DNA of 64,000 nt from Prevotella sp. (GTDB taxonomy: Bacteria; Bacillota_I; Bacilli_A; ML615J-28; CAG-313). Made by a program: the position numbers and the translations under genes. Within the stretch, counting starts at the first letter, position 1. Each line of letters begins with the position of its first letter. The notes beneath the pieces were generated by a model. That model saw only the letters and a list, made by a program, of their open reading frames with translations, had not been told where the DNA came from and ran no database searches. The stretch is from positions 396,982 to 460,981 of the forward strand of contig JAMPDF010000002.1 in assembly GCA_023665755.1 (NCBI GenBank). The letters are read 5' to 3'. Of the stretch, positions 34,786-56,000 are shown in pieces.

Positions 34786-34815
34786 TGCCTAACTGAAGAT
34801 AGGCAGTTTTTATTT
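34786..34815 (+). terminator. Riboswitch expression-platform intrinsic terminator
   Basis: CTGCCT-aactgaagat-AGGCAG is followed by TTTTTATTT, immediately upstream of the ribU RBS. Confidence 0.75.
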
Positions 34816-34825
34816 GGAGAAGGAT

Positions 34826-35476: not shown

Positions 35477-36548
35477 TGATTCATTTAAAGGAACCTTGCG
35501 TTCTGCAGAGATTGGACAAATTGTAAGTGACTATTGCAAGGAAAAAGGTTATGCTGCAACGTATATTCCCATTTCAGATGGTGGAGAAGGTTTTTTAGAG
35601 ACCGTACATTATATCACAAAGTTACCATTTCATCAAACAGAGGTTAATGACCCCTTATTTCAAAAGACGACCGCGAAATATCTTTTTGATGATGCAAAAC
35701 AAATTGCCTATTTAGAACTAGCCGAAGCTTGTGGCATTACCAAGATAAAGACATTATCGCCTATCCAAGCATCGACATATGGATTAGGTGAATTGATGAT
35801 GTATGTCATCAACAAACATGCACCTAAGAAGATGATTTTAGGAATTGGTGGCAGTGCTACTTCTGATATGGGGGCAGGTATGCTAGAAGCCTGTGGGGTG
35901 AATTTTTTAGATGCGCATCATTTTCGACTTTCTAAAATGAATCATGCTAAATTGATGCAAATTCGAAAAATTGAGACAAAAGGCTTCCTCAAAAAAATAA
36001 AGCACATTGAATTTGTTACATTAACAGATGTAGCCAATTGTGCCTTTGGACAAACAGGTTGCATCAAAACCTTTGCTCCCCAAAAAGGAGCCAAGGAGGA
36101 AGACTTATTTTTAATGGAAAAAAATGTACTCCATTTTCATCATGTAACTCAAGATACCTTTGGGACAACCATTCAAGATTTTCCTGGAGCAGGTGCTGCA
36201 GGAGGAGTGGGATATACGATGAAACATTATTTTGGAAGTAGGATTCAGTCAGGAATAGAAGTTCTATTAGATCTGGTAGATTTTTCTCACCTTGTACAAG
36301 AAAATGATATTGTTATTACAGGAGAAGGAGCATTTGATGAACAAAGCTTAAATGGTAAAGTCATCAGTGGAATTTGGAAACACCATCCAAAACGTCTTAT
36401 TGTACTTTGTGGTAAAAGTGAATTTTCCAATCCGCCATTTGAAGTATATCCGATTGTGCCTAAGGTTGCCTCTTTTGAAGAAGCGATAGCGCATCCTCAA
36501 GCATCGCTGAAGCAGCTTTTAGATATGATACCATTTGATCAAAAATAG
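35448..36548 (+). CDS. glxK: Glycerate kinase (GlxK/GarK family)
   Basis: It starts MKPMRILTISDSFKGTL and has glycine-rich GGSATSDMGAG and C-terminal TGEGAFDEQS motifs. The start is set at the conserved N-terminus. The ORF track extends upstream into ribU. Confidence 0.8.
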   Translation: MKPMRILTISDSFKGTLRSAEIGQIVSDYCKEKGYAATYIPISDGGEGFLETVHYITKLPFHQTEVNDPLFQKTTAKYLFDDAKQIAYLELAEACGITKIKTLSPIQASTYGLGELMMYVINKHAPKKMILGIGGSATSDMGAGMLEACGVNFLDAHHFRLSKMNHAKLMQIRKIETKGFLKKIKHIEFVTLTDVANCAFGQTGCIKTFAPQKGAKEEDLFLMEKNVLHFHHVTQDTFGTTIQDFPGAGAAGGVGYTMKHYFGSRIQSGIEVLLDLVDFSHLVQENDIVITGEGAFDEQSLNGKVISGIWKHHPKRLIVLCGKSEFSNPPFEVYPIVPKVASFEEAIAHPQASLKQLLDMIPFDQK

Positions 36549-41359: not shown

Positions 41360-42213
41360 TTCAGTGGTATCCTGGTCATATGGCCAAGGCCATCAAAGAA
41401 ATCACAGAAAAAGTCAAAATAGTGGATTTAGTGATTGTCTTATTAGATGCTAGAGTGCCAATATCGTCTTTCAATCCGTTATTAAAAGAAATTTTATCAA
41501 ATAAGAAAGTATTATATATTTTGACAAAAAAAGATAAAGCGGATGCTACCGAAACAGCAAAATGGTTAAAATACTATCAGTCACTTGGCATACGGGCAAT
41601 TGCGATGGATGCACGAGAACTGAAAAATGCCAAAATCGTTGTAAAAGAAGCAACACAATTATTAGCAGATAAACGCGCAAAGGATGTAGCTAGGGGAATA
41701 AAGCCAAGACCGATTAAAACGATGATTGTAGGAATTCCCAATGTAGGAAAATCAACCTTAATTAATGCTTTAGTTGGAAAAAGAGTAACCGCAGTGGGGG
41801 ATAGACCTGGTGTAACAAAGGTTCAGCAATGGATTAAAATCAATCAGGATTTAGAATTATTAGATACACCGGGTGTATTGTGGCAAAAGTTTGAAGATCA
41901 AACAATGGGACTTCATTTATCGATTACAGGTGCCATTCATGATGCAATATTGCCGGTTGTAGAAGTCAGTACATATTTGATTGATGCTTTGAATCAGTAT
42001 TATCCTGGAGCGCTAGAGAAAAGATATCAACTTTCTTTTCAACATCAAACAGCAGAAGACATACTATGTTCAATTGCCAAAAAGCAAAATCATTATTTAT
42101 CTGATAAATCGTTTGATTTAGAAAGAACGGCTCTATTCTTACTTCAAGAAGTAAGAAATGGGTATTATGGAAGAATTACATTAGATAGGTGCCCAATATG
42201 CGAAAATCAGTAG
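41356..42213 (+). CDS. rbgA: Ribosome biogenesis GTPase A (YlqF/RbgA)
   Basis: It starts MIQWYPGHMAKA and has a circularly permuted GTPase (NKKDKAD before GIPNVGKST ... DTPG). Confidence 0.85.
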   Translation: MIQWYPGHMAKAIKEITEKVKIVDLVIVLLDARVPISSFNPLLKEILSNKKVLYILTKKDKADATETAKWLKYYQSLGIRAIAMDARELKNAKIVVKEATQLLADKRAKDVARGIKPRPIKTMIVGIPNVGKSTLINALVGKRVTAVGDRPGVTKVQQWIKINQDLELLDTPGVLWQKFEDQTMGLHLSITGAIHDAILPVVEVSTYLIDALNQYYPGALEKRYQLSFQHQTAEDILCSIAKKQNHYLSDKSFDLERTALFLLQEVRNGYYGRITLDRCPICENQ

Positions 42214-42830
42214 AAGAAATGAAAGAAAATTACACTTTTGAAACCAGATATTATGCTGAAGGATTTCAATATATTGCGGGGACCGATGAAGTAGGAAGAG
42301 GCCCTTTGGCAGGTCCTGTTGTAGCAAGTGCTGTTATTATGCCTAAGGGATGTTATATTGAAGGGGTTACAGATTCGAAGAAATTATCGAGTAAAAAAAG
42401 AAAAGCTTTGCGAGCTGAAATTGAAGCAAAAGCATTAAGCATTGTTACAGTATTTATTGATGAGGAAACAATTGATCAAATCAATATTTATGAAGCTAGT
42501 CGCTTGGCCATGCAACAAGCTATAAAAGGTTTATATCCACAACCCGATTTGGTTCTATCTGATGCTATGCCATTACATATGGAAATAGAGAATCTCCCCA
42601 TTATTAAGGGCGATGAAAAAAGTTTTGTTATTGGCTGTGCAAGTATTATTGCCAAGGAAATTCGTGATGACTATATGGATATATTAGACAAAAGGTATCC
42701 TGGATATGGATTCAGTCAAAATAAGGGATATCCAACCAAGGCACATCAGGAGGCTTTACAAACGCAAGGTGTTTTGCCAATTCATCGCAAAACATATGGT
42801 CCTGTAGCAAGATTATTGCAAAATAAATAA
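42198..42830 (+). CDS. rnhB: Ribonuclease HII
   Basis: It has the IAGTDEVGRGPLAGPVVASAV catalytic N-motif and the rbgA-rnhB synteny. The exact start is ambiguous (42189, 42198 or 42219). Confidence 0.8.
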   Translation: MRKSVEEMKENYTFETRYYAEGFQYIAGTDEVGRGPLAGPVVASAVIMPKGCYIEGVTDSKKLSSKKRKALRAEIEAKALSIVTVFIDEETIDQINIYEASRLAMQQAIKGLYPQPDLVLSDAMPLHMEIENLPIIKGDEKSFVIGCASIIAKEIRDDYMDILDKRYPGYGFSQNKGYPTKAHQEALQTQGVLPIHRKTYGPVARLLQNK

Positions 42831-42844
42831 ATATAGGTGAAAAG

Positions 42845-43774
42845 ATGAATTTATTACATTTAAAATACGTTGTTGAAGTATATCAAACCAAATCATTTAC
42901 AAAAGCTGCAGAAAATTTATATATGGGACAACCTAATTTAAGTAGAGCCATTAAGGAGTTAGAACAGTCCTTAGGCATTACTATCTTTAGACGAACATCG
43001 AGAGGCATTGAAATTACTGAAGCAGGTGAGGAATTTGTTCATTATGCTAAAAAGATATTACAAGAGGTAGATGTTGTAGAAAAACGATATACACAACAAG
43101 AGACGCCAAAAGAAAAATTCTCAATTCTTGTGCCACGAGCTAGTTATATTGGTTCTGCTTTTGTAGCATTTATGCGCAAAATTGATCCTCATAAACATAT
43201 GGATATCACTTATAAAGAGACCAATTCTTTGAAAGCTCTAGATAAAGTATTAAAGGGTGAATATCGTTTGGGAATTATTCGATATCGCTCCTGTTTCGAT
43301 CGTGCATTTAAGCAAATGTTTGAGGAAAAGGGTTTAAATTATGAATTGATTTCTGAATTTCAGTATCAATTGGTAGTGCATCAAGATCACCCATTGACAA
43401 AGTTGGAACAAGTGACATGTGAAGATTTAAATCAATATATTGAAATCTGTCATCCTGATCCGTATGTCCCTAATGTTCCTTTTTATGATGTGAAAAAGAT
43501 TGAATTTTCAGAGGCCATTCATAGAAGAATATCAGTCTATGAAAGAGCTAGTCAATTTGATTTACTAGAGAATTTGCCCAATACATTTATGTGGGTTTCA
43601 CCTATTCCTCAAAAATTAATGGAAAAGTATAATTTGGTTGAACTAGTTTGTAAAGAACATAGTAATAAATATAAGGATGTCCTAATTTTTCGAAAAGGTT
43701 ATCATCTTACACCGATTGACCATCAATTTTTAACTATTTTATGTCAAGTAAAAAGAGAAATTTTAAAAGAATAA
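42845..43774 (+). CDS. LysR-family transcriptional regulator
   Basis: It has the N-terminal LysR wHTH (LHLKYVVEVYQTKSFTKAAENLYMGQPNLSRAIKELE) and a substrate-binding C-domain. Confidence 0.8.
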   Translation: MNLLHLKYVVEVYQTKSFTKAAENLYMGQPNLSRAIKELEQSLGITIFRRTSRGIEITEAGEEFVHYAKKILQEVDVVEKRYTQQETPKEKFSILVPRASYIGSAFVAFMRKIDPHKHMDITYKETNSLKALDKVLKGEYRLGIIRYRSCFDRAFKQMFEEKGLNYELISEFQYQLVVHQDHPLTKLEQVTCEDLNQYIEICHPDPYVPNVPFYDVKKIEFSEAIHRRISVYERASQFDLLENLPNTFMWVSPIPQKLMEKYNLVELVCKEHSNKYKDVLIFRKGYHLTPIDHQFLTILCQVKREILKE

Positions 43775-43812
43775 TATCCATATCAATTTGATATGGATTT
43801 ATTTATTTTTTA
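43775..43812 (+). terminator. Rho-independent terminator after the LysR gene
   Basis: ATCCATATCAA / TTGATATGGAT is followed by TTTATTTATTTTTT. Confidence 0.7.
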
Positions 43813-43815
43813 CAT

Positions 43816-43844
43816 TTGCCAAAAAAAAGCAAATTATGTATAAT
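43816..43844 (+). promoter_or_regulatory. Sigma-A promoter (TTGCCA-17-TATAAT) upstream of rex-adhE-hydrogenase operon
   Basis: The -35 is at 43816-43821, the spacer is 17 nt and the -10 is at 43839-43844, preceded by TG. Confidence 0.5.
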
Positions 43845-44005
43845 AATAGGGTAATAGCTTGTTGGTATATTCAATATCATTTTAATGCTAGAAAAAACAA
43901 AAATGAATAGCTATACAAGAATCATCTAGGATGATTTTTCCTTTATGATTTTTAATCGATATACTAGTATCGATATAGTTATATTTGATTCAAGGTGGTG
44001 AGAAC

Positions 44006-44629
44006 TTGCTACAGAATGCTGTTGCTAAAACAGTCCTTTATCGTATACCTATGTATTTGGAATATTTAATGGATATTCATGAAAATGAACCATCCATATC
44101 ACATATTTCTTCAAAGAAGATTTCGACTGATTTAGAATTAGGAGAAGTACAAGTAAGAAAAGATTTATCTATGATATGCGATAAGGGAAAACCCAAAATA
44201 GGATATAATTTATTAGAACTTATCGCGCATCTTCAAGACTATTTGGGGTGCAACTTTACCAAATATGCAATAGTAATAGGGGTTGGGAAATTAGGTAGCG
44301 CCATTTATCATTACGATGGTTTCAAGAAGTATGGTATTGAAATTGTTGCGGGATACGACAAAAAAGGTAACAGGATACCTGGTATTCAATTTTTTTCAAA
44401 AGAAAATGTGATGAAAATATTTCAAACGCATAAGATTGAAATTGGGATTATTTGTGTACCCAAAGAAGAAGCCCAAGAGGTTGCCGATGTACTAGTTGCA
44501 CTCGGTATAAAAGCAATTTGGAATTTTGCACCTATCCGGTTAAAGGTTCCAAAACATATATTTGTTCAAAATGAAAATCTTGCTTATTCATTAAGCATTA
44601 TCTCATCAATTATTAATCATTCACAATAG
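44006..44629 (+). CDS. rex: Redox-sensing transcriptional repressor Rex
   Basis: It has the N-terminal wHTH (VLYRIPMYLEYL) and an NADH-binding Rossmann fold (AIVGVGKLGSAIYHY). The likely TTG start at 44006 lies 5 nt after RBS AAGGTGGTGA. The ORF track starts at an upstream TTG at 43985. Confidence 0.75.
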   Translation: MLQNAVAKTVLYRIPMYLEYLMDIHENEPSISHISSKKISTDLELGEVQVRKDLSMICDKGKPKIGYNLLELIAHLQDYLGCNFTKYAIVIGVGKLGSAIYHYDGFKKYGIEIVAGYDKKGNRIPGIQFFSKENVMKIFQTHKIEIGIICVPKEEAQEVADVLVALGIKAIWNFAPIRLKVPKHIFVQNENLAYSLSIISSIINHSQ

Positions 44630-44638
44630 GAGGTAGAC

Positions 44639-47242
44639 ATGAATAAAATAGTTGACAGTTTAGAAACGTTAGAAGAAAAAATTAAAGAAGTGCGAAAGGC
44701 ACAAGAGATTTTAGCTACTTATACACAAGAACAAGTAGATAAGATTTTTAAGGCGGCGGCTATTGCGGCAAATTCCAATCGAATTATGTTAGCAAAAATG
44801 GCAGTAGAAGAAACAGGCATGGGAGTGGTTGAAGATAAGGTAATCAAAAACCATTATGCCAGTGAATATATTTATAATGCTTATCGTGATACACAAACTT
44901 GTGGTGTCATTGAAGAAGATAGTGCTTTTGGCATCAAAAAGGTTGCAGAACCAATTGGCGTTATTGCTGCAGTTATTCCGACGACAAATCCAACATCTAC
45001 AGCGATATTCAAAACATTAATTGCTCTAAAAACGCGAAATGGAATTATCATTAGTCCACATCCAAGGGCGAAAAAATCAACGATTGCTGCAGCAAAAGTG
45101 GTACTAGATGCTGCTGTAAAGGCGGGTGCTCCCAAACATATTATTGGTTGGATTGATGTTCCGAGTCTAGAAATGACGAATACTGTGATGAAAGAAGCCG
45201 ATATTATTTTAGCAACAGGTGGTCCTGGTATGGTGAAAGCTGCCTACTCTAGCGGCAAACCTGCTTTAGGAGTAGGTTCAGGAAATACACCAGCAATCAT
45301 TGACGAAAGTGCAAATGTGGTTCTTGCAGTCAACTCCATTATTCATTCCAAAACATTTGATAATGGAATGATTTGCGCATCTGAACAATCAGTGATTGTA
45401 TTAAAAAAGATATATGAACAAGTAAAAGATGAGTTTTTGAAAAGAGGCTGTTATTTCTTAAATCCAGAAGAATTGGAGAAAGTAAGAAAGACAATTTTAA
45501 TTAATGGATCTTTGAATGCGAAGATTGTAGGACAATCAGCTTATAAAATTGCTCAGTTATCGGGTATTGAGGTGCCTGCCTATACAAAAATTTTAATTGG
45601 TGAAGTAGAAAAATATGATTTGAGTGAAGAGTTTGCGCATGAAAAATTATCTCCAGTACTTGCTATGTATAAGGCTACTTCATTTGATGACGCTTTAGTT
45701 AAAGCAGAATCTTTAATTGCAGATGGTGGATTGGGACACACTTCCTCGATTTTTATTGATCAAATTCATGAAAAAGCCAAATTAGAAAAATTTTATAATC
45801 GAATGAAGACCTGTAGAATTATTGTCAATACACCTGCTTCTCAAGGAGGTATTGGGGATTTATATAACTTTAAACTGGCTCCATCTCTTACATTAGGTTG
45901 TGGATCATGGGGAGGAAACAGTGTTTCTGAAAATGTTGGTGTCAAACATTTATTAAATATCAAAACAGTAGCGGAAAGAAGGGAAAATATGTTGTGGTTT
46001 AGAACTCCTCAAAAAGTATATATCAAAAAAGGATGTTTACCTGTTGCCCTAAATGAATTAAAGGATGTATACAATAAAAAGAAGGTATTTATTGTAACAG
46101 ATGGTTTCTTGTATCAAAATGGATATACAAAGCCTATTACCAATCAATTGGATGCTATGGGAATAATGCATACTACTTTCTATAATGTTGCTGCTGATCC
46201 TTCTTTAGGCAGTGCAAAAGAAGGGGCAAGGCAAATGGCTTCTTTTGGACCAGATGCAATTATTGCTATAGGTGGAGGTTCCGCAATGGATGCTGCTAAA
46301 ATCATGTGGGTATTATATGAACACCCAGAAGTAGATTTTGCTGATATGGCTATGCGTTTTTCCGATATTCGCAAAAGAATTTATCAATTTCCAAAGATGG
46401 GGGAAAAAGCAATGTTTATTGCTATTCCAACTACAGCGGGAACTGGTTCTGAAGTTACGCCATTTGCTGTTATTACTGATGAGGCTACGGGTATTAAATA
46501 TCCACTAGCAGATTATGAATTGATGCCTAATATGGCAATTGTAGATGCGGATATGATGATGAATGCACCGAAAGGTCTTACGAGTGCATCCGGAATAGAT
46601 GCAGTTACACATGCATTAGAAGCATATGCATCAATGCTCGCAACAGAGTATACAGATGGTCTTGCAAAAGAGGCATTAAAGGTAATTTTTGAATATTTGC
46701 CTCGGGCATATGAAGATGGACCATCAGATGCAGTAGCTAGAGAAAAAATGGCTAATGCAGCAACTATGGCAGGTATGGCTTTTGCTAATGCTTTCCTAGG
46801 AGTTTGTCACTCTATGGCACATAAATTAGGTGCATTCCACCATTTACCACATGGTGTAGCTAATGCTTTGATGATTGATGAAGTGATTCATTTCAATAGT
46901 GCAGAAATTCCAACTAAGATGGGAACCTTCCCACAATATGATCATCCACATACGGCTAGTCGATATGCTGAAATTGCAGACTATTTGGGATTAGGAGGAA
47001 AGACAACTGAAGAAAAAGTAGAACTATTGATTGAAAAAATAGATCAGTTAAAAGAAAAAATTGGTATCAAACAGTCTATTCAAGAATATGGTGTGGATGA
47101 AAAAGATTTCTTAGAAAGATTAGATGAAATGACTGAACAAGCATTTGATGATCAATGTACAGGTGCTAATCCTCGTTATCCTCTAATGAGTGAAATTAAA
47201 CAAATGTATTTAAATGCATATTATGGAAAGGAGACAAAGTAA
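44639..47242 (+). CDS. adhE: Bifunctional aldehyde/alcohol dehydrogenase AdhE
   Basis: It is 867 aa with an N-terminal ALDH domain and a C-terminal Fe-ADH domain (GGGSAMDAAK and the iron-ADH histidines). Confidence 0.95.
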   Translation: MNKIVDSLETLEEKIKEVRKAQEILATYTQEQVDKIFKAAAIAANSNRIMLAKMAVEETGMGVVEDKVIKNHYASEYIYNAYRDTQTCGVIEEDSAFGIKKVAEPIGVIAAVIPTTNPTSTAIFKTLIALKTRNGIIISPHPRAKKSTIAAAKVVLDAAVKAGAPKHIIGWIDVPSLEMTNTVMKEADIILATGGPGMVKAAYSSGKPALGVGSGNTPAIIDESANVVLAVNSIIHSKTFDNGMICASEQSVIVLKKIYEQVKDEFLKRGCYFLNPEELEKVRKTILINGSLNAKIVGQSAYKIAQLSGIEVPAYTKILIGEVEKYDLSEEFAHEKLSPVLAMYKATSFDDALVKAESLIADGGLGHTSSIFIDQIHEKAKLEKFYNRMKTCRIIVNTPASQGGIGDLYNFKLAPSLTLGCGSWGGNSVSENVGVKHLLNIKTVAERRENMLWFRTPQKVYIKKGCLPVALNELKDVYNKKKVFIVTDGFLYQNGYTKPITNQLDAMGIMHTTFYNVAADPSLGSAKEGARQMASFGPDAIIAIGGGSAMDAAKIMWVLYEHPEVDFADMAMRFSDIRKRIYQFPKMGEKAMFIAIPTTAGTGSEVTPFAVITDEATGIKYPLADYELMPNMAIVDADMMMNAPKGLTSASGIDAVTHALEAYASMLATEYTDGLAKEALKVIFEYLPRAYEDGPSDAVAREKMANAATMAGMAFANAFLGVCHSMAHKLGAFHHLPHGVANALMIDEVIHFNSAEIPTKMGTFPQYDHPHTASRYAEIADYLGLGGKTTEEKVELLIEKIDQLKEKIGIKQSIQEYGVDEKDFLERLDEMTEQAFDDQCTGANPRYPLMSEIKQMYLNAYYGKETK

Positions 47243-47243
47243 A

Positions 47244-47993
47244 ATGGATTTAGAACGTGTTATTGCCGTAAGAACATCAAAGACAATTTATCGGACAGGT
47301 GAAAAAGTTGTTAAGGTATTTGATGAAGACTATTCAAAAGTAGATGTCTTAAATGAAGCGTTAAATCAAGCGATTGTAGAAGGATTAGGACTACATATTC
47401 CTAAGATTTATTCTGTAGAATCTGTAGAGGGAAAATGGGCCATTGTCTCTGAATATATAAAAGGAAAAACAATTTCTGATTTGATGCAAATGCATCCTGA
47501 GAAAAAAAATGAATATTTAGAAAAATTTGTGGATTTACAACTATCCATGCATCAAGTCAAGTGTTCTAATTTAAAGAAACTCAAAGACAAAATGAATACA
47601 AAAATTAGCCAAACGGACTTAGATGCTACTACTCGTTATGAATTACATACGAGATTAGAGGGGATGCCTAAACATAATAAGTTGTGTCATGGTGATTTTA
47701 ATCCATCAAATGTAATTATTCGTGAGGATGGAACACCATTTATTATTGACTGGAGTCATGCTACGCAAGGCAACGCATCTGCTGATGTTGCTAGAACATA
47801 TTTGTTATTTTGGTTAAATCAAGAGGGTGAAACAGCAAATCAATATTTGGATTTATATTGCCAAAAGAGTGGTGTAGCTAAGAAATATATTCAGTCTTGG
47901 TTACCTATTGTTGCTGCGTCACAATCTGTAAAAGGTCATCAAAATGAACGTGATCTTTTGTTGAGTTGGGTTAATGTTGTTGACTACGAATAG
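47244..47993 (+). CDS. Protein-kinase-fold phosphotransferase (APH/choline-kinase family)
   Basis: It carries the Brenner motif HGDFNPSNVII and IDWSHA (DxxxxN...D). The start ATG at 47244 follows RBS AAGGAG, 1 nt after the adhE stop. Confidence 0.6.
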   Translation: MDLERVIAVRTSKTIYRTGEKVVKVFDEDYSKVDVLNEALNQAIVEGLGLHIPKIYSVESVEGKWAIVSEYIKGKTISDLMQMHPEKKNEYLEKFVDLQLSMHQVKCSNLKKLKDKMNTKISQTDLDATTRYELHTRLEGMPKHNKLCHGDFNPSNVIIREDGTPFIIDWSHATQGNASADVARTYLLFWLNQEGETANQYLDLYCQKSGVAKKYIQSWLPIVAASQSVKGHQNERDLLLSWVNVVDYE

Positions 47994-48002
47994 GAGGAAA
48001 AT

Positions 48003-48242
48003 ATGAAAAAAGTAGTAGTTTGTATAGGAAGTTCATGTCATTTAAAAGGCTCTAGACAAGTTGTAGAAAGATTGCAAGAATTGATTGCAGAATATGATTT
48101 AAAAGAAGAAGTAGAACTCCAAGGTACTTTTTGTATGGGCAACTGCCAAAAAGGGGTTTGCGTGAAAGTAGATGAAACATTATTTTCCGTATCCCCAGAA
48201 ACAGTAGATGCATTCTTTCAAAAAGAGGTAATGGGAAAATAG
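48003..48242 (+). CDS. Thioredoxin-like [2Fe-2S] ferredoxin (NuoE/HydC-fold), copy 1
   Basis: It is 79 aa with four Cys in a CxxxxC...CxxxC pattern (C7, C12, C44, C48). Confidence 0.6.
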   Translation: MKKVVVCIGSSCHLKGSRQVVERLQELIAEYDLKEEVELQGTFCMGNCQKGVCVKVDETLFSVSPETVDAFFQKEVMGK

Positions 48243-48253
48243 GTACATAGCAA

Positions 48254-48502
48254 ATGACAATTCAAATTTGTATCGGTAGCTCATGCCATCTAAAAGGTTC
48301 ACAACAAATAATTGAATTATTTGAAAAAAGTATTCAGGAAAATCAATTAGAAGAAAAGGTAAAACTTGTCGGTTCTTTCTGTTTGGGAAAGTGTAGCAAT
48401 TCAGGAGTTAATGTTTGCATTGATGATAAGGAAATGATTAGTGTAACTCCAGAAAATTTTCACGCGTTTTTCAATGATAAAGTATTAAAATATTTAAAAT
48501 AG
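48254..48502 (+). CDS. Thioredoxin-like [2Fe-2S] ferredoxin (NuoE/HydC-fold), copy 2 (tandem paralog)
   Basis: It is 82 aa with the same Cys spacing as copy 1 and clear paralogy (ICIGSSCHLKGS in both). Confidence 0.6.
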   Translation: MTIQICIGSSCHLKGSQQIIELFEKSIQENQLEEKVKLVGSFCLGKCSNSGVNVCIDDKEMISVTPENFHAFFNDKVLKYLK

Positions 48503-48511
48503 GTGAGAAAT

Positions 48512-50188
48512 ATGTCCGAATTTTTAAAATTAAAGAAATCAAATTGTAAGAATTGTTATAAATGTATTCGACATTGTCCAGTAAAATCAATTAAATTCTC
48601 TGGTGATCAAGCGCATATTGTTGGCAACGAATGTATTTTATGTGGTCAATGTTTTGTCGTTTGTCCACAAAATGCCAAAGAAATTCAGAATGATTTGGAA
48701 AAAGTGAAAGTAATGCTTGCTGCAAAAGAACAAGTCATTGTAAGTTTAGCTCCTTCATTTATTGCCAACTACGATGGAATTGGTCTTGAGCAAATGGCAC
48801 AAGCTCTACGTCAATTGGGCTTTTTTGCGGTAGAGGAAACTGCCATTGGTGCAACCATTGTAAAAAAGCAATATGAAGCCATTTTGGAGTCAAAAAGACA
48901 AAATATCTTGATTACATCTTGCTGTCATTCTGTGAATTTGCTCATTCAAAAGTATTTTCCGAGTACACTTCGATATCTTGCTGACGTAAAATCTCCTATG
49001 CAAATGCATGCAATAGATATCAAGAAAAGAATGCCTAATGCCAAAGTTGTATTTATTGGACCATGTCTCGCTAAAAAGGATGAGGCAGACCATTATACAG
49101 GAATCGTTGATGCTGTCTTGACATACGAAGAATTGACAATGTGGTTAAAAGAAAGTAATATTGTTCTAGAAAAAGGACTAGAAGTAAATGAAAAGTCAAA
49201 GGCAAGATTATTCCCAATAACCGGAGGGATTTTAAAAACAATGAAACCTGATATTGCAGGCTATAAATATATTGCGATTGATGGGGTAGAAAATTGTATA
49301 GCTGCTTTAAAAGATATAGAAAATGGCATGTTAGATAATTGTGTAATTGAAATGTCAGCTTGCGTAGGTAGTTGTATAGGTGGGCCAGTTATGGAGAAAT
49401 ATCATCGTTCCCCTATTCGTGATTATTGTTCAGTCGTAAATTATGCAGGTAATCAAGATTTCGATGTAGAAGCATATGGTGATGAGGAACTAACCAAGCA
49501 TTTTGAATATATTGCAAGAAAGGCAGAAGAACCCTCTGAAGATGCTATTCGTTCTATTCTAAGACAGATGGGCAAGATGCGCCCATCAGATGAATTAAAT
49601 TGTGGTTCATGTGGCTATAATACTTGTCGTGAAAAGGCGATAGCGATTATTCAAGGTAAAGCTTCTATTTCTATGTGTTTGCCTTTCCTAAAAGAAAGAG
49701 CAGAGAAATTTTATACCAATATTATTGATAATACACCAGATGGCATTTTAGTATTAAATGAAGATCTAGAAGTTCAACAAATCAATGATGCGGCACGTAA
49801 GATTATGAATATTAAATATGCAACGGACGTATTAGGAGATCAAGTCATTCGTATTCTTGATCCATATCCATTCTTGCAAGTCAAATTAAACAATAAAAAT
49901 GTTTATAATGAACGTATTTATTTGGCTGAGTATAATCGATATGTCGAAAGAACTATTGTCTATGATAAAAATTATAAAATTATCATTTGTTTTATGAGAG
50001 ATGTTACACTTGAGGTTACCGCAAAAGAAAAGAAAGATGAAATCTCTTCAAGAACGGTAGAAATCGCTGATAAAGTGGTGGATAAACAAATGCGTATTGT
50101 CCAAGAAATTGCTTCCCTTTTAGGAGAAACTGCAGCTGAAACTAAAATTGCTTTAACGAAATTAAAGGAGTCAATGAAGGATGAATAA
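48512..50188 (+). CDS. hydS: Sensory-type [FeFe] hydrogenase (HydS/HfsB-like, group C). Domains are 2x[4Fe-4S] ferredoxin, H-cluster, Cx2Cx4Cx16C cluster and a C-terminal PAS domain.
   Basis: Ferredoxin motifs CKNCYKCIRHCP and CILCGQCFVVCP are present. The H-cluster motifs are variant: TSCCHSV (L1), FIGPCLAKKDE (L2), EMSACVGSCIGGP (L3). CGSCGYNTC-x16-C and a PAS-like C-terminus follow. The start ATG at 48512 follows AGGTGAG. Confidence 0.8.
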   Translation: MSEFLKLKKSNCKNCYKCIRHCPVKSIKFSGDQAHIVGNECILCGQCFVVCPQNAKEIQNDLEKVKVMLAAKEQVIVSLAPSFIANYDGIGLEQMAQALRQLGFFAVEETAIGATIVKKQYEAILESKRQNILITSCCHSVNLLIQKYFPSTLRYLADVKSPMQMHAIDIKKRMPNAKVVFIGPCLAKKDEADHYTGIVDAVLTYEELTMWLKESNIVLEKGLEVNEKSKARLFPITGGILKTMKPDIAGYKYIAIDGVENCIAALKDIENGMLDNCVIEMSACVGSCIGGPVMEKYHRSPIRDYCSVVNYAGNQDFDVEAYGDEELTKHFEYIARKAEEPSEDAIRSILRQMGKMRPSDELNCGSCGYNTCREKAIAIIQGKASISMCLPFLKERAEKFYTNIIDNTPDGILVLNEDLEVQQINDAARKIMNIKYATDVLGDQVIRILDPYPFLQVKLNNKNVYNERIYLAEYNRYVERTIVYDKNYKIIICFMRDVTLEVTAKEKKDEISSRTVEIADKVVDKQMRIVQEIASLLGETAAETKIALTKLKESMKDE

Positions 50189-51353
50189 TCTTTGTACAGA
50201 TATAGGCTATCGTAGTTTACTCAAACATCATGAGCAACTTTGTGGTGATCATATAGATATTATTGACCAGGAGGATGGAACAAAAATTATTGTACTTGCT
50301 GATGGATTAGGAAGCGGGGTAAAAGCATGTATTTTATCAACTTTAACTTCTAAAATTATTTCAACAATGATGGCAGAAGGAATCTCTATTGAGGAATGTG
50401 TCGCAACGATTGCTGCAACACTACCTGTTTGTTCTGTTCGTAAGGTGGCTTATTCTACCTTTACAATTTTGAAAATTTCACCTAATAGCGAAGCTGAAGT
50501 TATAGAATATGATAATCCTGGGATTATTTTAATACGTGATGGAGAAAATTATGAGTTAAACAAAACTGAATTGAACATTGGAGGTAAAAAAATTTACAAA
50601 TCCAAAGTCCAATTGTATGAAAATGACGTATTTGTAATGATGAGTGATGGATGTATTTACGCTGGAGTCGGAAAAACACTTAATTTTGGTTGGAAAAGAG
50701 AAGATATCATTGAAATGGTAAAGATTTTACCATCAGCTGGTTATACAGCAAAAACAATGACAACAATTTTACTAGATGAGTGTAATAAATTATATGGCTA
50801 TGAACCAGGTGATGATACGACTGCTTGTGTAGTTCGAATTAGAAAAAGAGAACCAATGAATCTTTTATTTGGTCCACCAAGTAATCCGGATGATTGTAAT
50901 CGAATGATGTCATTGTTTTTTTCTAAAGGTGGAAAACACATTGTATGTGGTGGAACAACTTCATCTATAGCTGCTAAATACTTAGGTAAATCAATCACCC
51001 CATCACTTAATTATTCGGATCCTAAAATCCCACCAACTGCTGAAATTGAAGGAGTAGATTTGGTAACAGAAGGTGTAATTACCATTAATCGTGTATTAGA
51101 ATATGCAAAGGATTATTTAGAAGATAATCAATCTTATGTCAATTGGTGTTATAAAAAAGATGGAGCATCTTTAATCTCACGTCTTTTATTTGAAGAAGCT
51201 ACCGATATTAATTTTTATGTAGGAAGAGCAATGAATCCTGCACATCAAAATCCCAATCTACCTATCAATTTCAACATTAAAATGCAATTGGTTCAAGAAC
51301 TATCAGAGTGCTTGAAAAAGATGGGAAAAAATATAAAAGTAAGTTATTTTTAG
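50181..51353 (+). CDS. PP2C (PPM/SpoIIE-type) serine phosphatase with an uncharacterised roughly 170-aa C-terminal domain
   Basis: It carries the PPM motifs GDHIDI, ADGLGSGVKA, MMSDGCIYAGVG and GDDTTACVV. Its start overlaps the hydS stop. Confidence 0.75.
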   Translation: MNNLCTDIGYRSLLKHHEQLCGDHIDIIDQEDGTKIIVLADGLGSGVKACILSTLTSKIISTMMAEGISIEECVATIAATLPVCSVRKVAYSTFTILKISPNSEAEVIEYDNPGIILIRDGENYELNKTELNIGGKKIYKSKVQLYENDVFVMMSDGCIYAGVGKTLNFGWKREDIIEMVKILPSAGYTAKTMTTILLDECNKLYGYEPGDDTTACVVRIRKREPMNLLFGPPSNPDDCNRMMSLFFSKGGKHIVCGGTTSSIAAKYLGKSITPSLNYSDPKIPPTAEIEGVDLVTEGVITINRVLEYAKDYLEDNQSYVNWCYKKDGASLISRLLFEEATDINFYVGRAMNPAHQNPNLPINFNIKMQLVQELSECLKKMGKNIKVSYF

Positions 51354-51364
51354 GTGAAAAAAAT

Positions 51365-52789
51365 ATGAAAAAATTTGATACACAAGTTCAATATTTAAAA
51401 TATAAAGTATTAAGAGAAGTAGCAAGAAAGGCTTGGGATGATACGTTATATGAAAAAATATTGGATATACCCAAAATTATTATTCCAGGACCTACCCCGA
51501 CTACAAGATGTTGTATTTATAAAGAAAGGGCAATTGTTGAAGAAAGAATTAAGATTGCTATGGGTGGAGATAAATCAAATCCCAATGTCATAGAAGTCAT
51601 TGATTTGGCTTGTGATGAATGTCCTGTTGCAGGATATGAAGTAACAGATGTATGTAGAGGTTGTCTTGCGCATCGCTGTCAAGATGCGTGTAAAAAAGAT
51701 GCCATTTATTTTGATCACAACCAAAAAGCTCACATTGATAAATCGAAATGTGTAGAATGTGGAAAGTGTTCTACAGTATGCCCATATGGTGCCATTGTCA
51801 ATTTTAAAAGACCATGTGAAAAATCATGCAAAGTAAAAGCGATTTCAATGGGACCAAATAAGGCAGCCAAAATCGATAATGATAAATGCATTTCTTGTGG
51901 TTCATGTGTTTATCAATGCCCATTCGGTGCTATTATGGATAAATCTTATATTATTAATGTCATTGATATTTTGAAAAAAAGTCAGCATAATCAAAAATAT
52001 AAAACTTATGCGGTAGTAGCTCCATCCATATCTAGTCAATTTGTGCATGCTAAATTAGGACAAGTGATTTCAGGTATCAAGGAATTAGGATTCTTTACAG
52101 TAGTAGAAGCAGCTCTTGGTGCTGATATGGTGGCATACAAGGAAACACAAGAATTAATTGAAAAAGGCTTTTTAACTAGTTCGTGTTGTCCTGCTTTTGT
52201 AATGTATATCAAAAAGAATTTTCCCAAATTGGTAGAGCATATTTCGCACAATTTATCTCCTGCCGCAGAAATTGCCAAATACATTAAGGAAACTGATCCA
52301 ACCGCAAAAGTGATTTTTATTGGTCCATGTACTGCGAAAAAGGCTGAGTTTCAGCAAGAAATGCAGAAACAATATGTTGATTCTGTATTGACATTTGAAG
52401 AATTGCAAGCCCTTTTTGATAGTAAAGATTTAGATATTTACTCATTATCAGAAGATGTTTTAGATAATGCATCTTATTATGGCAGAATCTTTGCTAGGAG
52501 TGGGGGTTTAACGGATGCTGTAAAACAGGCATTAATTGAATTGGGACAAACGGATTTTGAGGTAAAGCCAGTCGTATGTAATGGAATTGAAGAATGCCGA
52601 ATGGCCTTATTAAAAGTTGGTAAAATTGATATTGGTAACTTTATAGAAGGAATGGCTTGTGTAGGTGGATGCATTGCTGGAGCAGGTTGTTTAACTCATG
52701 GTGAAAAGAATAAAGCAGAAGTAGATAAGTATGGCATGGAAGCATATGAAAAAACCATTCAAGATGCTATCAAAGTGCTTAAAAAGTAA
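51365..52789 (+). CDS. hydA: [FeFe] hydrogenase catalytic subunit (group B-like, extra N-terminal Cys cluster plus 2x[4Fe-4S])
   Basis: The canonical H-cluster motifs SSCCPAFV (L1), FIGPCTAKKAE (L2) and EGMACVGGCIAGAG (L3) are present. Ferredoxin motifs are CVECGKCSTVCPYGAI and CISCGSCVYQCPFGAI. The start is set at MKKFDTQ after AGGTGA. The ORF track extends upstream into the PP2C gene. Confidence 0.8.
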   Translation: MKKFDTQVQYLKYKVLREVARKAWDDTLYEKILDIPKIIIPGPTPTTRCCIYKERAIVEERIKIAMGGDKSNPNVIEVIDLACDECPVAGYEVTDVCRGCLAHRCQDACKKDAIYFDHNQKAHIDKSKCVECGKCSTVCPYGAIVNFKRPCEKSCKVKAISMGPNKAAKIDNDKCISCGSCVYQCPFGAIMDKSYIINVIDILKKSQHNQKYKTYAVVAPSISSQFVHAKLGQVISGIKELGFFTVVEAALGADMVAYKETQELIEKGFLTSSCCPAFVMYIKKNFPKLVEHISHNLSPAAEIAKYIKETDPTAKVIFIGPCTAKKAEFQQEMQKQYVDSVLTFEELQALFDSKDLDIYSLSEDVLDNASYYGRIFARSGGLTDAVKQALIELGQTDFEVKPVVCNGIEECRMALLKVGKIDIGNFIEGMACVGGCIAGAGCLTHGEKNKAEVDKYGMEAYEKTIQDAIKVLKK

Positions 52790-52875
52790 TTCAATTTATG
52801 CTTTTGCAAAAGAGTTGCTTATCTATATGAAGTGTGCTAAAATTACCTTATATATAATATATGAGGTAATTTTTT

Positions 52876-53724
52876 ATGAACAATACTCATTTCATTCAAG
52901 AGGAAATAGAAGTTATATCTACGGCTAATCAAACACTACGACAAAGTTATTTTCGATATGAGAAAAAGATGAATATATTTAATTTCTCAATGTTCATGTG
53001 TTGTTTTGTTACTATGGCTTTGGTAGGAATGCTTTTATCATCTAAGATTATGACAGGAATTAGTGTAGGGATTACATTATTTTTACTATTGATGTTAGTA
53101 ATAGTATTAGTCAATATCCATAAGCGCTCCAAACTATCTTGTGATGTATCTTATGATGAATTTTTGTTTCAATCGGATGCGTTCATAGTGAAAGAAAAAT
53201 CAGTATCTAATTCATCTACAACTAAGATTTTATATACACAAGTAGTTGGACTTACGGAAAATAAAGATTTCTTTTTGATTCAATTAAAAGACAATAGAGG
53301 TTATCTAATTGAAGTTAGTGGCAATGAACTGGCTCTTTGGAAAATTAAACGAATGTTATTTCCTTATGTAAAAATATTCAATCAAATCACAGTGACTAAG
53401 AAGACAAAAATTGAATCCTGTGAGTATATGGATAATGCTTTGCGGTTATCACCAGGTATGATAACTGTTTTGAATGGGCTATTAACGTTTGCTTCACTGA
53501 TTGTAGGTATGTTTTGTGTTTATATAGACCAACAAACATTATCGCCACTTATGTTATTTCCAGTAGTTTTGGTTTTACAACTAAGTATAATCGGACTAGG
53601 TATTTTTTTAGGAACGAAAAGTGGTCAATTCAAAAAGAGCATTCTTGCAATAATAGTAGGAAGTATACTATTTTTTGCGGAATTGATGATAGGTTTATCT
53701 TACGTGATACTGAATTACTGGTAA
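52876..53724 (+). CDS. Membrane protein of unknown function (possible bacterial PH-like domain)
   Basis: An N-terminal TM pair is followed by a soluble roughly 120-aa segment and then about 3 C-terminal TM helices. No motif. Confidence 0.45.
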   Translation: MNNTHFIQEEIEVISTANQTLRQSYFRYEKKMNIFNFSMFMCCFVTMALVGMLLSSKIMTGISVGITLFLLLMLVIVLVNIHKRSKLSCDVSYDEFLFQSDAFIVKEKSVSNSSTTKILYTQVVGLTENKDFFLIQLKDNRGYLIEVSGNELALWKIKRMLFPYVKIFNQITVTKKTKIESCEYMDNALRLSPGMITVLNGLLTFASLIVGMFCVYIDQQTLSPLMLFPVVLVLQLSIIGLGIFLGTKSGQFKKSILAIIVGSILFFAELMIGLSYVILNYW

Positions 53725-53760
53725 GCGCATGAAAAATACAATGCGCTTTTTTTGTTTTTT
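53725..53760 (+). terminator. Rho-independent terminator
   Basis: GCGCAT-gaaaaataca-ATGCGC is followed by TTTTTTTGTTTTTT. Confidence 0.8.
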
Positions 53761-53844: not shown

Positions 53845-53873
53845 CAAAACACAAAATGATGACGAGGTGTTTT

Positions 53874-56000
53874 ATGAAGTTACTCATCGTGGAATCTCCA
53901 GCAAAGTGTAAAACCATAGGGAATTATTTAGGTGAAGAATATTTAGTAGAATCTAGTATAGGTCATATTAGAGATCTCAAAATCAAAGGCAAAGGTGGAT
54001 TCGGAGTAGATATCGAAAATAACTTTCAGCCTGAATATAGTATTTTAAAAGATAAAGGAGAAATTGTTGAAAAACTAAAATCAGTTGCCAATTTAGCTGA
54101 GCACATCTATTTAGCAACTGACCCTGACCGTGAAGGAGAAGCGATTAGCTGGCATTTGAGCGAGGTACTAGAACAACCAGACGAAAAAGTTTCTAGAATT
54201 GTCTTTAATGAAATTACGAAAAACGCAATATTAAAAGCGATTCAAAATGATCGCGATATAGATATGGATTTGGTTCATTCACAAGAATCAAGAAGAATAT
54301 TAGATCGTATTATTGGATTCCGTTTATCTAGTTTACTTCAACAAAAGATAGGTTCAAAATCGGCTGGTCGGGTACAATCGGTTGCCTTAAAATTGGTAGT
54401 AGATCGTGAAAAAGAAATCGAAGCATTTGACAAGGTTGAATATTGGGATTTGGCTGCTATTTTAAATAAGGAAATAGCAGGAAATATTTATACATTACGA
54501 GCGAAATTTTTTGGCCGAAAAGATGAAAAGATGACACTTTCTTCTGAGGAAGAAACCAATCAAGTCATTGCAGCTTTAAAAGAAGATGAATACAAAATTA
54601 TCGATATCAATAAGAAAGAACGAAATCGTGCTTCACGTCCTCCTTTTATTACCTCGACATTACAACAAGATGCTGGTGCGAAATTCAATTATAATGCAAA
54701 ACGAGTAATGGGAATCGCCCAAAAGTTATATGAAGGGGTTGAACTTGGTAAAGAGCGTGTTGGTTTGATTACTTATATGCGTACTGATTCTATTCGTTTA
54801 TCGGATGAGTTTGTTCATTCTGCTAAACAATATATTACTGAAAAGTATGGTGAAAAATATTATAAAGGAACCAAAAAAGCGCCTAAAGGAAAGAATATAC
54901 AAGATGCGCATGAAGCCATTCGTCCAACCAATATTGTTAGAACTCCTGAGAGTGTGAAAAAATATTTGGCTGCTGATGAATATAAAATCTATTCCTTAAT
55001 ATATAATAGAGCGATTGCCTCTTTAATGAGCGATGCCATATTAGAGGATACGAAAGTAGATATTGAAAACCAAGGCTACATTTTTAATTTAACAGGTGAA
55101 ATTACTTTATTTGATGGTTTTTTAACTATTTATGAAGAATCAAGTTTGGTCGATGAAGAAGAAAATTTGGATCACTTACCAGAGTTATCCATTGGAGAAA
55201 ATTTATCCTTCCAAGAAATTTCAAAGGAACAGAAATTTACTTCGCCACCATATCGTTATACTGAGGCAAGATTAATTCGTAAGATGGAAGAACTAGGCAT
55301 TGGAAGACCTTCTACTTATGCACTAACGATGGAAACTTTGCGGGCAAGAGCATATGTAGCGATGGAAAAGAAAACATTCGTTCCCACTGCACAAGGAAGA
55401 CTTACGACAGAACAATTGGAATTGTTCTTTAGTAGCATTATTAATGTAAAATATACTGCTGATATGGAAAATACATTAGATAAAATTGCTGAGGGCGATG
55501 CGATTTGGTATGAGGAACTACGCAAGTTTTATGATGTGTTTGCTCCACTCATTGAAAATGCTAGAGACAATATGGTCAAAATATATCCAAAAATAACGGA
55601 TGAATTTTGTCCTGAATGTGGGTTGCCATTATTCATTAGACGTGGTCCATTTGGTGAATTCACCGCTTGCTCGGGTTATCCTCATTGCCGTTACATCAAA
55701 AAAGCACCAAAGAAGGAAGTGGTGACAACGGGAGTAACCTGTCCTATTTGTGGTGAAGGTGAGGTTGTCGAAAGAACAAGTGCAAGGGGAAGATCAAAAG
55801 GTGCATTATTTTATGCTTGTAGTCGTTTCCCAAAATGTAAAGCCACTTTTTCAGGTATTCCTACAGGAGAAAAATGTGAAATTTGTGGTGCACCGATGAT
55901 TCGAGTAGGTGAAATTATTCGTTGTAATAGTGAACGCTGTAAATCCAATGTTGGATTGCTACCTCAAAAAGAAGAAAACAAAAAGATTGATAGCAAGTAG
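53874..56000 (+). CDS. topA: DNA topoisomerase I
   Basis: It has the Toprim N-terminus (MKLLIVESPAKCKTIGNYLG), a catalytic Tyr region and three C-terminal Cys4 zinc ribbons. RBS GAGGTG lies before the ATG at 53874. Confidence 0.95.
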   Translation: MKLLIVESPAKCKTIGNYLGEEYLVESSIGHIRDLKIKGKGGFGVDIENNFQPEYSILKDKGEIVEKLKSVANLAEHIYLATDPDREGEAISWHLSEVLEQPDEKVSRIVFNEITKNAILKAIQNDRDIDMDLVHSQESRRILDRIIGFRLSSLLQQKIGSKSAGRVQSVALKLVVDREKEIEAFDKVEYWDLAAILNKEIAGNIYTLRAKFFGRKDEKMTLSSEEETNQVIAALKEDEYKIIDINKKERNRASRPPFITSTLQQDAGAKFNYNAKRVMGIAQKLYEGVELGKERVGLITYMRTDSIRLSDEFVHSAKQYITEKYGEKYYKGTKKAPKGKNIQDAHEAIRPTNIVRTPESVKKYLAADEYKIYSLIYNRAIASLMSDAILEDTKVDIENQGYIFNLTGEITLFDGFLTIYEESSLVDEEENLDHLPELSIGENLSFQEISKEQKFTSPPYRYTEARLIRKMEELGIGRPSTYALTMETLRARAYVAMEKKTFVPTAQGRLTTEQLELFFSSIINVKYTADMENTLDKIAEGDAIWYEELRKFYDVFAPLIENARDNMVKIYPKITDEFCPECGLPLFIRRGPFGEFTACSGYPHCRYIKKAPKKEVVTTGVTCPICGEGEVVERTSARGRSKGALFYACSRFPKCKATFSGIPTGEKCEICGAPMIRVGEIIRCNSERCKSNVGLLPQKEENKKIDSK

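Follow-up and report, generated by a model that had tools for sequence, protein, structure and literature searches.

The stretch of DNA analysed here, hereafter the window, comprises 64,000 nucleotides (nt) of contig JAMPDF010000002.1 (GCA_023665755.1, positions 396,982 to 460,981), deposited under the name Prevotella sp. The element under study is a putative operon in which the gene of a redox-sensing repressor (rex), the ethanol-forming enzyme AdhE and two [FeFe] hydrogenases are encoded side by side. Eight consecutive open reading frames (ORFs) on the + strand lie within 43985-52789, and the ORF listing with its translations reproduced the gene coordinates of an earlier annotation made from the sequence only (the first-pass annotation) exactly or nearly. 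The gene starts were subsequently refined from the annotation of an identical public contig (GCA_023664905.1). The genes and sites of the locus, listed with protein lengths in amino acids (aa), are the following.

42845-43774, + strand: lysR, a LysR-family transcriptional regulator of 309 aa, directly upstream of the operon
43780-43794, unstranded: dyad ATATC-N5-GATAT, resembling a box for LysR-type transcriptional regulators (LTTR; T-N11-A type), inside a hairpin at 43776-43798
43816-43844, + strand: promoter-like site P1, TTGCCA-17-TATAAT, agreeing with the consensus at 11/12 positions
43920-43950, + strand: leader hairpin AATCATC-TAG-GATGATT followed by a T-rich run, -8.9 kcal/mol
43954-43975, unstranded: tandem palindrome AATCGATA-N6-TATCGATA, a candidate operator tied to operon-borne rex (consensus TATCGATA-N6/7-TATCGATA)
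44006-44629, + strand: rex, 207 aa, TTG start, ribosome-binding site (RBS) AAGGTGGTGA, a putative NADH/NAD+-sensing repressor paralogue
44639-47242, + strand: adhE, 867 aa, bifunctional acetaldehyde-CoA/alcohol dehydrogenase
47244-47993, + strand: phosphotransferase of the APH/choline-kinase fold, 249 aa, a putative signalling kinase
48003-48242, + strand: fdxA, thioredoxin-like [2Fe-2S] ferredoxin A, 79 aa (PF01257, 33 bits)
48254-48502, + strand: fdxB, thioredoxin-like [2Fe-2S] ferredoxin B, 82 aa (PF01257, 36 bits)
48512-50188, + strand: hydS, a putative H2-sensing [FeFe] hydrogenase of group-C type, 558 aa
50181-51353, + strand: PP2C phosphatase of the SpoIIE family, 390 aa, with a C-terminal domain of 170 aa
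51365-52789, + strand: hydB (hydA2), a monomeric group-B [FeFe] hydrogenase, presumably ferredoxin-dependent, 474 aa
52839-52875, + strand: intrinsic-terminator-like hairpin with a U-run which closes the operon, AT-rich stem of ~13-16 bp, -12.8 kcal/mol

From rex to hydB the genes are separated by gaps of 9, 1, 9, 11 and 9 nt, an 8-nt overlap and a last gap of 11 nt, in agreement with the spacing of 1 to 11 nt or overlap first described. A stock terminator scan and a relaxed hairpin-plus-T-run scan revealed no convincing internal terminator within 44006-52789, as the first-pass annotation had also stated, and clear hairpin structures were found by both only at 43776-43798, 43920-43950, 52839-52875 and 53730-53750. 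The third of these is the terminator-like hairpin noticed earlier after the last hydrogenase gene, and the 101-nt segment which holds it folds with z = -3.5. According to the promoter scan and the sequence, the sole promoter-like site near adhE would initiate transcription 3' of the adhE ATG, and adhE would therefore have to be co-transcribed with rex.

The identities proposed for all eight ORFs agree with Pfam and NCBIfam. Rex reaches 226 bits with NCBIfam NF003994 (cut-off 130) and contains both the Put_DNA-bind_N and the CoA_binding domain. It aligns with the Rex of Thermoanaerobacter ethanolicus (3WG9) at E = 5e-36, and its GVGKLG falls on the GxGxxG motif of solved Rex proteins. AdhE matches NF010378 with 1394 bits (cut-off 951). 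HydB, recognised by TIGR04105 as a monomeric [FeFe] hydrogenase with 562 bits (cut-off 450), carries the TSCCP, GPCxxKK and EGMACxxGC motifs, which read SSCCP, GPCTAKK and EGMACVGGC in the translation, the TSCCP and MAC motifs being catalytic. It has Gly at the position of M353 in the hydrogenase CpI, as is also reported for CpIII (PMC10055695).

HydS has two N-terminal [4Fe-4S] motifs, which are followed by the H-domain, then by a 4-Cys FeS domain and a PAS domain, and at its C-terminus there is a conserved helix. The Hfs-like assignment made at first hung on the presence of an H-cluster domain, which is found here with 164 bits (Fe_hyd_lg_C) and four cysteine ligands, C138, C185, C284 and C288 of motifs L1-L3, all invariant in the HydS alignment (A1). 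The same alignment shows an invariant C-terminal 4-Cys cluster (C364, C367, C372, C389), while Pfam detects the FeS domain PF04060 with 42.8 bits and the PAS domain PF00989 with 24.5 bits (cut-off 22.6). At the positions of CpI M353 and M497, a correspondence assigned from the L1-L3 motifs and not from structure, HydS has G183 and S282, a pattern which agrees with the sensory substitutions reported in PMC10055695. The PDB sequence search returned no solved group C [FeFe] hydrogenase. As a separate observation, the terminal helix within the last ~50 residues of HydS (window 50030-50188) is almost invariant, even in a 39%-identical homologue from Acetoanaerobium, and is a candidate interaction or phosphorylation segment.

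The 390-aa protein encoded after HydS matches the SpoIIE phosphatase family PF07228 with 61 bits (cut-off 25), which confirms its reading as a PPM phosphatase, and its PDB matches are SpoIIE and RsbX. Its metal-binding motifs GDH, ADGLGSG, SDG and GDDTT are nearly invariant (alignment A2), and its C-terminal domain gave no meaningful Pfam match at E values up to 10. The phosphotransferase matches Pfam APH (PF01636) with 74 bits and shows HGDFNPSN and IDWS catalytic motifs in its translation. The nearest solved structures in the PDB sequence search are all weak matches: choline kinase 4R77 (E = 1.5e-4), Bud32 and hygromycin kinase.

A tblastn search with HydS against plasmids returned a 65%-identical protein on pRUMAL01 of Ruminococcus albus 7. 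The annotation of this plasmid lists, around the match, a LysR regulator, Rex, AdhE, a phosphotransferase, two (2Fe-2S) ferredoxin-domain proteins, an [Fe-Fe] hydrogenase domain protein, a SpoIIE-family phosphatase and a 4Fe-4S dicluster protein which corresponds to HydA2. Gene order and orientation in this region (NC_014824.1, 138999-147916) are identical to those of the window, LysR included. In nearly full-length tblastn alignments, the proteins of the two loci are 51% (LysR), 74% (AdhE), 67% (kinase), 68% and 49% (ferredoxins), 65% (HydS), 69% (PP2C) and 72% (HydA2) identical, and window Rex shares 41% with pRUMAL01 Rex over 191 aa. Furthermore, the tandem TATCGATA site upstream of rex is common to both. 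In R. albus the genes form a 'putative eight-gene cluster', whose expression falls 111-fold when the bacterium is grown together with an H2 consumer (Greening et al. 2019, PMC6776011), and the sensor hydrogenase is described as 'co-transcribed' (PMC6776011). Since an identical arrangement has thus been published as H2-responsive, the earlier statement that this is not a described operon architecture does not hold. Judged from sequence, the window locus is very probably the orthologue of the hydS-hydA2-aad (adhE) transcription unit of R. albus 7, and a single operon with the LysR gene upstream. Zheng and colleagues (2014), who studied this R. albus locus, reportedly place hydS and hydA2 in a larger transcriptional unit that also encodes Aad, a redox-sensing repressor and both a kinase and a phosphatase of the Ser/Thr type.

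The distribution of this layout was determined on a broader scale by a pattern scan derived from the HydS alignment over one genome per species, which yielded at least 568 confirmed relatives; the 80 best loci among these (HydS 65-82% identical) were retained. Neighbouring genes were annotated by tblastn with the window proteins, and the requirement for at least 6.8 kb of sequence upstream and at least 2.7 kb downstream left 45 species-level loci. The most frequent layout, LysR / Rex-AdhE-Kin-Fdx-Fdx-HydS-PP2C-HydB, is that of the window and R. albus (15/45 loci), followed by the identical layout minus rex (9/45). PP2C is present in all 45 loci, HydB in 42, the kinase in 38, LysR in 36, AdhE in 30 and Rex in 21. 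The neighbourhood search proposed with the first-pass annotation places adhE beside the hydS module in 30 of 45 loci, and tells against novelty once more. Each of the 30 loci with adhE also has the kinase gene (30/30), and eight further loci have the kinase without AdhE. Because adhE never occurs without the kinase while the reverse is seen, the kinase is assigned to the sensing core and not to adhE. The carriers are for the most part uncultured Clostridia of animal guts (Oscillospiraceae, Ruminococcaceae and others), and a few are labelled Bacilli or Mycoplasmatota (loci L011 and L027). The R. albus layout is consequently the predominant form of the module among the sampled gut and rumen Clostridia, and Bacilli- or Mollicutes-like genomes carry it as well. 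What this analysis shows directly is the gene content with its orthology and synteny, the conservation of the layout in many genomes and the cis-element pattern described below.

The regulator gene lysR, absent from the first-pass annotation, ends 71 nt before the promoter-like site. Its product matches HTH_1 with 74 bits and LysR_substrate with 28.8 bits, the substrate domain being at the cut-off. The best NCBIfam matches, both below cut-off, are CidR and AlsR, which are regulators of overflow metabolism. Orthologues 51-64% identical are located directly upstream in R. albus 7, L002 and L005, and this position is unchanged whether the first gene of the operon is rex, adhE, the kinase gene or fdxA. 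A literature search for the co-mention of hydS and LysR returned one unrelated genome report and, among the papers searched, no mention in this context.

The hairpin at 43776-43798 doubles as the apparent lysR terminator and encloses the only exact ATATC-N5-GATAT of the 64-kb window. The distance from the end of this dyad to TATAAT (43839-43844) is 44 nt, with equal spacing, by hand count, in L002, where adhE is first, and in L005, where fdxA is first. P1 keeps its place with respect to the dyad in L002, L005, L011 and L091 as well. Because this geometry is maintained in orthologous loci, 43816-43844 is taken as a real, conserved promoter; the promoter first proposed at 43816 is therefore retained for its geometry, as its 11/12 match to the consensus proves nothing alone. 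The centre of the dyad lies at about -64 relative to the predicted transcription start, and LTTR recognition sites are usually found near that position (about -65). Given this placement of an LTTR-type dyad, the LysR protein is probably an activator at P1. TATC-N5-8-GATA dyads, related to that of the window, occur in many rex-less loci.

A leader of ~85 nt between P1 and the tandem site contains the hairpin 43920-43950, which L011 and L091, the rex-bearing relatives nearest to the window, have likewise as AATCATC-N3/4-GATGATT with a T-run; a 5' GTAATAG box is a further element common to these leaders. The hairpin may be an attenuator, a terminator or the end of a short leader RNA. Rfam matched the leader with a sub-threshold gltS alone, on the opposite strand (22 bits, cut-off 47.5). 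In L011 and L091 a second promoter-like TGTATAAT is found ~50 nt downstream of the tandem site, and the window is without such an element.

Co-transcription is reported for R. albus, where it is said to include rex and the kinase gene, and for the window a single rex-to-hydB transcript is predicted from tight spacing and the lack of internal terminators. Several observations weigh against reading the locus as a single, Rex-gated and H2-responsive operon of the R. albus kind. Promoter-like matches in the region are not above chance (51, with 55.6 expected in shuffled sequence). The leader hairpin with its T-run could stop transcripts from P1, and because of this hairpin and the second TGTATAAT of L011 and L091 the true transcription start of the operon is uncertain. 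Moreover, Rex control of adhE had been assumed from general knowledge, and no canonical Rex operator occurs at 43700-44700 with up to 3 mismatches allowed. The kinase scores 18.2 bits with Pkinase PF00069, below the cut-off of 31.7, and is by Pfam no Hanks-type Ser/Thr protein kinase. Finally, by motif alignment HydS retains in C137 the proton-relay cysteine equivalent to CpI C299, and given this residue it may be catalytically active; only 17% of sensory hydrogenases keep such a cysteine (PMC10055695).

The observations on the leader are those which an arrangement of more than one transcription unit would explain, with P1 transcripts ending at 43920-43950 and second or internal promoters driving rex-adhE and the hyd genes separately. 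The hairpin and T-run are kept in both L011 and L091, each of which has a clear TGTATAAT downstream of the tandem, and promoter-like hexamers are present inside hydS (49133-49161) and hydB (51963-51991). Such internal matches, however, are no commoner than in shuffled sequence, the gaps of at most 11 nt and the overlap leave no space for regulatory regions, and the scans found no internal terminator in the operon. The orthologous R. albus cluster acts as one co-regulated unit, and a second promoter upstream of rex would still yield a single transcript from rex to hydB. Separate transcription of these genes is thus considered quite improbable, and the single operon is preferred.

A different role has also been weighed for HydS, namely that of a catalytic or electron-transfer subunit in a multi-subunit hydrogenase with the ferredoxins and HydA2, whereby the kinase and PP2C would regulate the enzyme post-translationally and not its transcription. 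All H-cluster ligands are kept together with the C299-equivalent cysteine. The authors working on Thermoanaerobacterium saccharolyticum considered that HfsABC might be a functional hydrogenase without HfsD (PMC13277313), and hfs mutant data suggested that regulation is partly post-transcriptional (PMC5707799). Nevertheless, the Gly and Ser at the M353 and M497 positions are those of the low-activity sensor HydS of Thermotoga maritima (TmHydS), a PAS domain and a conserved C-terminal helix are present, as is typical of proteins in signalling, and the group C enzymes characterised so far are very low in activity (PMC11376134). An enzymatic function of this kind is therefore judged unlikely, and HydS is preferably read as a sensor.

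As regards the kinase, the 'Ser/Thr kinase' label which the literature gives to this operon member is a prediction. The kinase-fold phosphotransferase of the first-pass annotation stands as an APH/choline-kinase-like fold and does not extend to a Hanks-type protein kinase. Its best family and PDB matches, all weak, are APH, thiamine kinase and choline kinase and, with the low Pkinase score, they would suit a small-molecule kinase of the choline, thiamine or antibiotic type, either metabolic or a hitch-hiker of adhE, with no part in H2 signalling. The gene context speaks otherwise: where present (38/45 loci) the kinase is always directly upstream of the ferredoxin-hydS-PP2C genes, it occurs in eight loci without adhE although adhE is never without it, and the pairing of a kinase with a PP2C phosphatase in one operon usually marks a phospho-switch. 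The weak matches, moreover, also include protein kinases of the Bud32 and RIO types. There is accordingly little likelihood of a purely small-molecule kinase here, and a signalling role remains the favoured one.

With respect to Rex, the canonical box is TGTTAAAATATTAACA, and a scan of the window with TTGTKAA-N4-TTMACAA at up to 3 mismatches gave 27 matches against 41 expected, none of them near the operon promoter. The tandem palindrome at 43954-43975 is the sole match of its kind in the window at up to 1 mismatch. Spacers between LysR and the first gene were compared in 42 non-redundant loci, 20 of them rex-first and 22 others, with boxes and tandems scored at up to 2 mismatches. The tandem TATCGATA-N6/7-TATCGATA is present in 20/20 rex-first spacers and in 2/22 of the others (Fisher p = 4.5e-10), while the canonical TGTTAA-N4-TTAACA shows the reverse tendency, being found in 5/20 rex-first spacers only and in 14/22 of those that are not rex-first, including 11/12 adhE-first ones. 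In the adhE-first spacers the canonical box overlaps an extended -10 element (TGTTAAAAT). Across all fetched loci, 27 of the 30 which bear rex have the tandem upstream of this gene (up to 2 mismatches), with the copy of L008 at 4276-4298. When the 1.46 Mb of fetched loci are searched at up to 1 mismatch, 21/24 matches sit 50-300 nt upstream of an operon-borne rex.

Operon-borne Rex proteins have a sequence pattern of their own, G(E/D)VQVRKDL...GKPK(I/V)GY, in the recognition helix and the wing, which differs in the alignment from two solved canonical Rex proteins, those of T. ethanolicus (3WG9) and Bacillus subtilis (2VT2). R. albus 7 has in addition a separate chromosomal Rex, Rumal_1252, the expression of which is unchanged in co-culture (PMC6776011). 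On a neighbour-joining tree of HydS and PP2C, built without support values, rex-bearing and rex-less states are interspersed, which suggests that the association of rex with the tandem is not one single inherited event.

The tandem might instead be a variant of the LysR site. It lies 37 nt upstream of the -10 element, an activator-like position, in Clostridial loci (R. albus L008, L027, L048 and L083, by hand count). This explanation is weakened by the presence of the tandem upstream of rex in loci without an adjacent LysR (L029, L040, L070) and by its coexistence in the window with a separate LTTR-like dyad, but is not rejected, and neither it nor a Rex operator is preferred here. Taken together, these patterns would fit a tentative scheme, more doubtful than not, in which the operon rex is a specialised paralogue whose operator has switched from TTGTTAA-N4-TTAACAA to a co-travelling tandem TATCGATA-N6/7-TATCGATA, giving two interchangeable wirings; the CidR/AlsR-like LysR activator would form a third input and may be a target of the kinase and PP2C. 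If this is true, the rex-less version, with the canonical box over the -10, would be controlled in trans and the rex-bearing version, with the tandem, would be autoregulated.

For the operon as a whole, we infer by analogy with published R. albus and Hfs work how the signal would be passed on and where LysR and Rex would bind. HydS would bind H2 at an H-cluster tuned for sensing and not for turnover, and its redox state would be relayed via the 4-Cys cluster and then the PAS domain, a step in which the two small [2Fe-2S] ferredoxins may take part. This relay would set the balance between the co-encoded kinase and PP2C phosphatase, and the phosphorylation state of some target would then adjust the expression or activity of AdhE and HydA2. 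Transcription from P1 would be activated by LysR, with operon-borne Rex adding an NADH/NAD+ gate. The operon would thereby switch on a 'high-H2' branch of fermentation, in which NADH is removed by AdhE as ethanol and reduced ferredoxin by the ferredoxin-only hydrogenase. At low H2 it would be silent, and NADH and reduced ferredoxin would go through a bifurcating hydrogenase. The convergence of NADH and H2 signals on ethanol versus H2, suggested by the first-pass annotation, is in line with what others have proposed for the orthologous cluster (PMC6776011, PMC5707799).

Operons of this type are thought to set the balance of ethanol, acetate and H2 in fermenters according to the H2 partial pressure, a balance on which hydrogen transfer between species in rumen and gut, and with it methane output, depends. 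In engineered thermophiles it was by targeting them that a high ethanol yield was unlocked. How sensory [FeFe] hydrogenases transduce their signal is still described as unknown (PMC11376134), and the conserved partners and cis sites described here are candidates for study in this respect. Beyond the literature found, the comparative cis-element pattern and the near-constant LysR partner are the only additions, offered as leads.

The LysR gene and the operon, ~11 kb in all, are flanked by rnhB and topA and so lie among consecutive housekeeping genes (flanks 42189-42830 and 53856-56000), whereas the R. albus copy resides on a Clostridial megaplasmid of 420 kb. Lateral mobility, with modular gain and loss of rex and of adhE-kinase, is suggested by the rnhB-topA site here, the plasmid location in R. 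albus and the mixed rex states on the tree, and horizontal transfer of the cluster from Clostridia is plausible. The window host has ~33% GC, without anomaly in base composition, and is describable only as an uncultured, Bacilli- or Mollicutes-like gut or rumen bacterium. HydS and PP2C proteins identical to those of the window occur in public records of metagenome-assembled genomes that bear the names Prevotella sp., Staphylococcus sp. and Anaeroplasma bactoclasticum, and at least two of these three taxon labels must be wrong.

Downstream of the operon, a gene at 52876-53724 (+ strand) encodes a multi-pass membrane protein of 282 aa, which weakly matches YcxB-like proteins. Its RBS is sequestered in the stem of the operon terminator, and the gene is specific to this genome, not being found beside the cluster in other loci. 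Elsewhere in the window, an 18-mer, TTATTATGCATTTACCAA, occurs twice (2791-2808 and 3480-3497, ~690 nt apart), in or near the ORFs 1893-3407 and 3397-4188. Rfam applied to the whole window detected only a flavin mononucleotide (FMN) riboswitch (RF00050, 34644-34760, + strand, 108 bits, gathering score 66), which precedes the ORFs 34814-36548 and is unrelated to the operon.

Among known systems, hfsABCD of T. saccharolyticum (Tsac_1550-1553) encodes a PAS-containing [FeFe] hydrogenase (HfsB), a PP2C-type protein (HfsC) and an [FeFe] hydrogenase (HfsD), in an order which, by domain architecture, is alike in the window. HfsB has been equated with HydS and HfsD with HydA2 (PMC11837493, PMC13277313), and in five thermophiles both the expression of adhE and the ethanol yield rise when hfsB is deleted (Eminoglu et al., PMC5707799). 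The Hfs-like quartet of the first-pass annotation is accordingly upheld for the PAS-hydrogenase, PP2C and hydrogenase part and is doubtful for the ferredoxins as HfsA: compared by description, the window has two thioredoxin-like [2Fe-2S] ferredoxins, while HfsA is said to show no good alignment to any of the known proteins (PMC11837493). Moreover, T. saccharolyticum has adhE (Tsac_0416) and rex at other places in its genome, and its hfs operon is described without a kinase, whereas the window has them all in the operon.

Group C sensory enzymes and window HydS have in common the conserved H-cluster ligands, the extra C-terminal 4-Cys cluster and the PAS domain. TmHydS, which belongs to this group, has G177 and S267 at the positions of CpI M353 and M497, as window HydS by motif alignment has Gly and Ser, but Ala at the C299 position, where the window protein keeps Cys. 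A further difference from the group is the pairing of window HydS with a PP2C phosphatase and an APH-fold kinase. An analogous logic, from a low-activity H2 sensor through a phospho-relay to the expression of metabolic genes, is known from the [NiFe] regulatory hydrogenase HoxBC-HoxJ-HoxA of Ralstonia eutropha, a comparison drawn in both PMC5707799 and PMC6776011. The proteins themselves are unrelated, with [NiFe] and a histidine kinase/response regulator in the one case and [FeFe] with an APH-fold kinase/PP2C in the other, and no homology between them.

The Rex regulons of Clostridia and Thermoanaerobacter include adhE and hydrogenase genes, and the window too encodes a Rex with an intact Rossmann motif. 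It differs from them in that rex lies inside the operon which it presumably controls, without a canonical box, whereas rex-less orthologous operons have the box. The closest system remains that of R. albus 7, from which the window departs in its control region: this measures 235 nt as against 203 nt, and is arranged differently, with the LTTR-like dyad and P1 apart from the tandem site and the leader hairpin between them. The kind of operon is thus already known, and what is new here is its host lineage, its chromosomal context and the arrangement of its control region.

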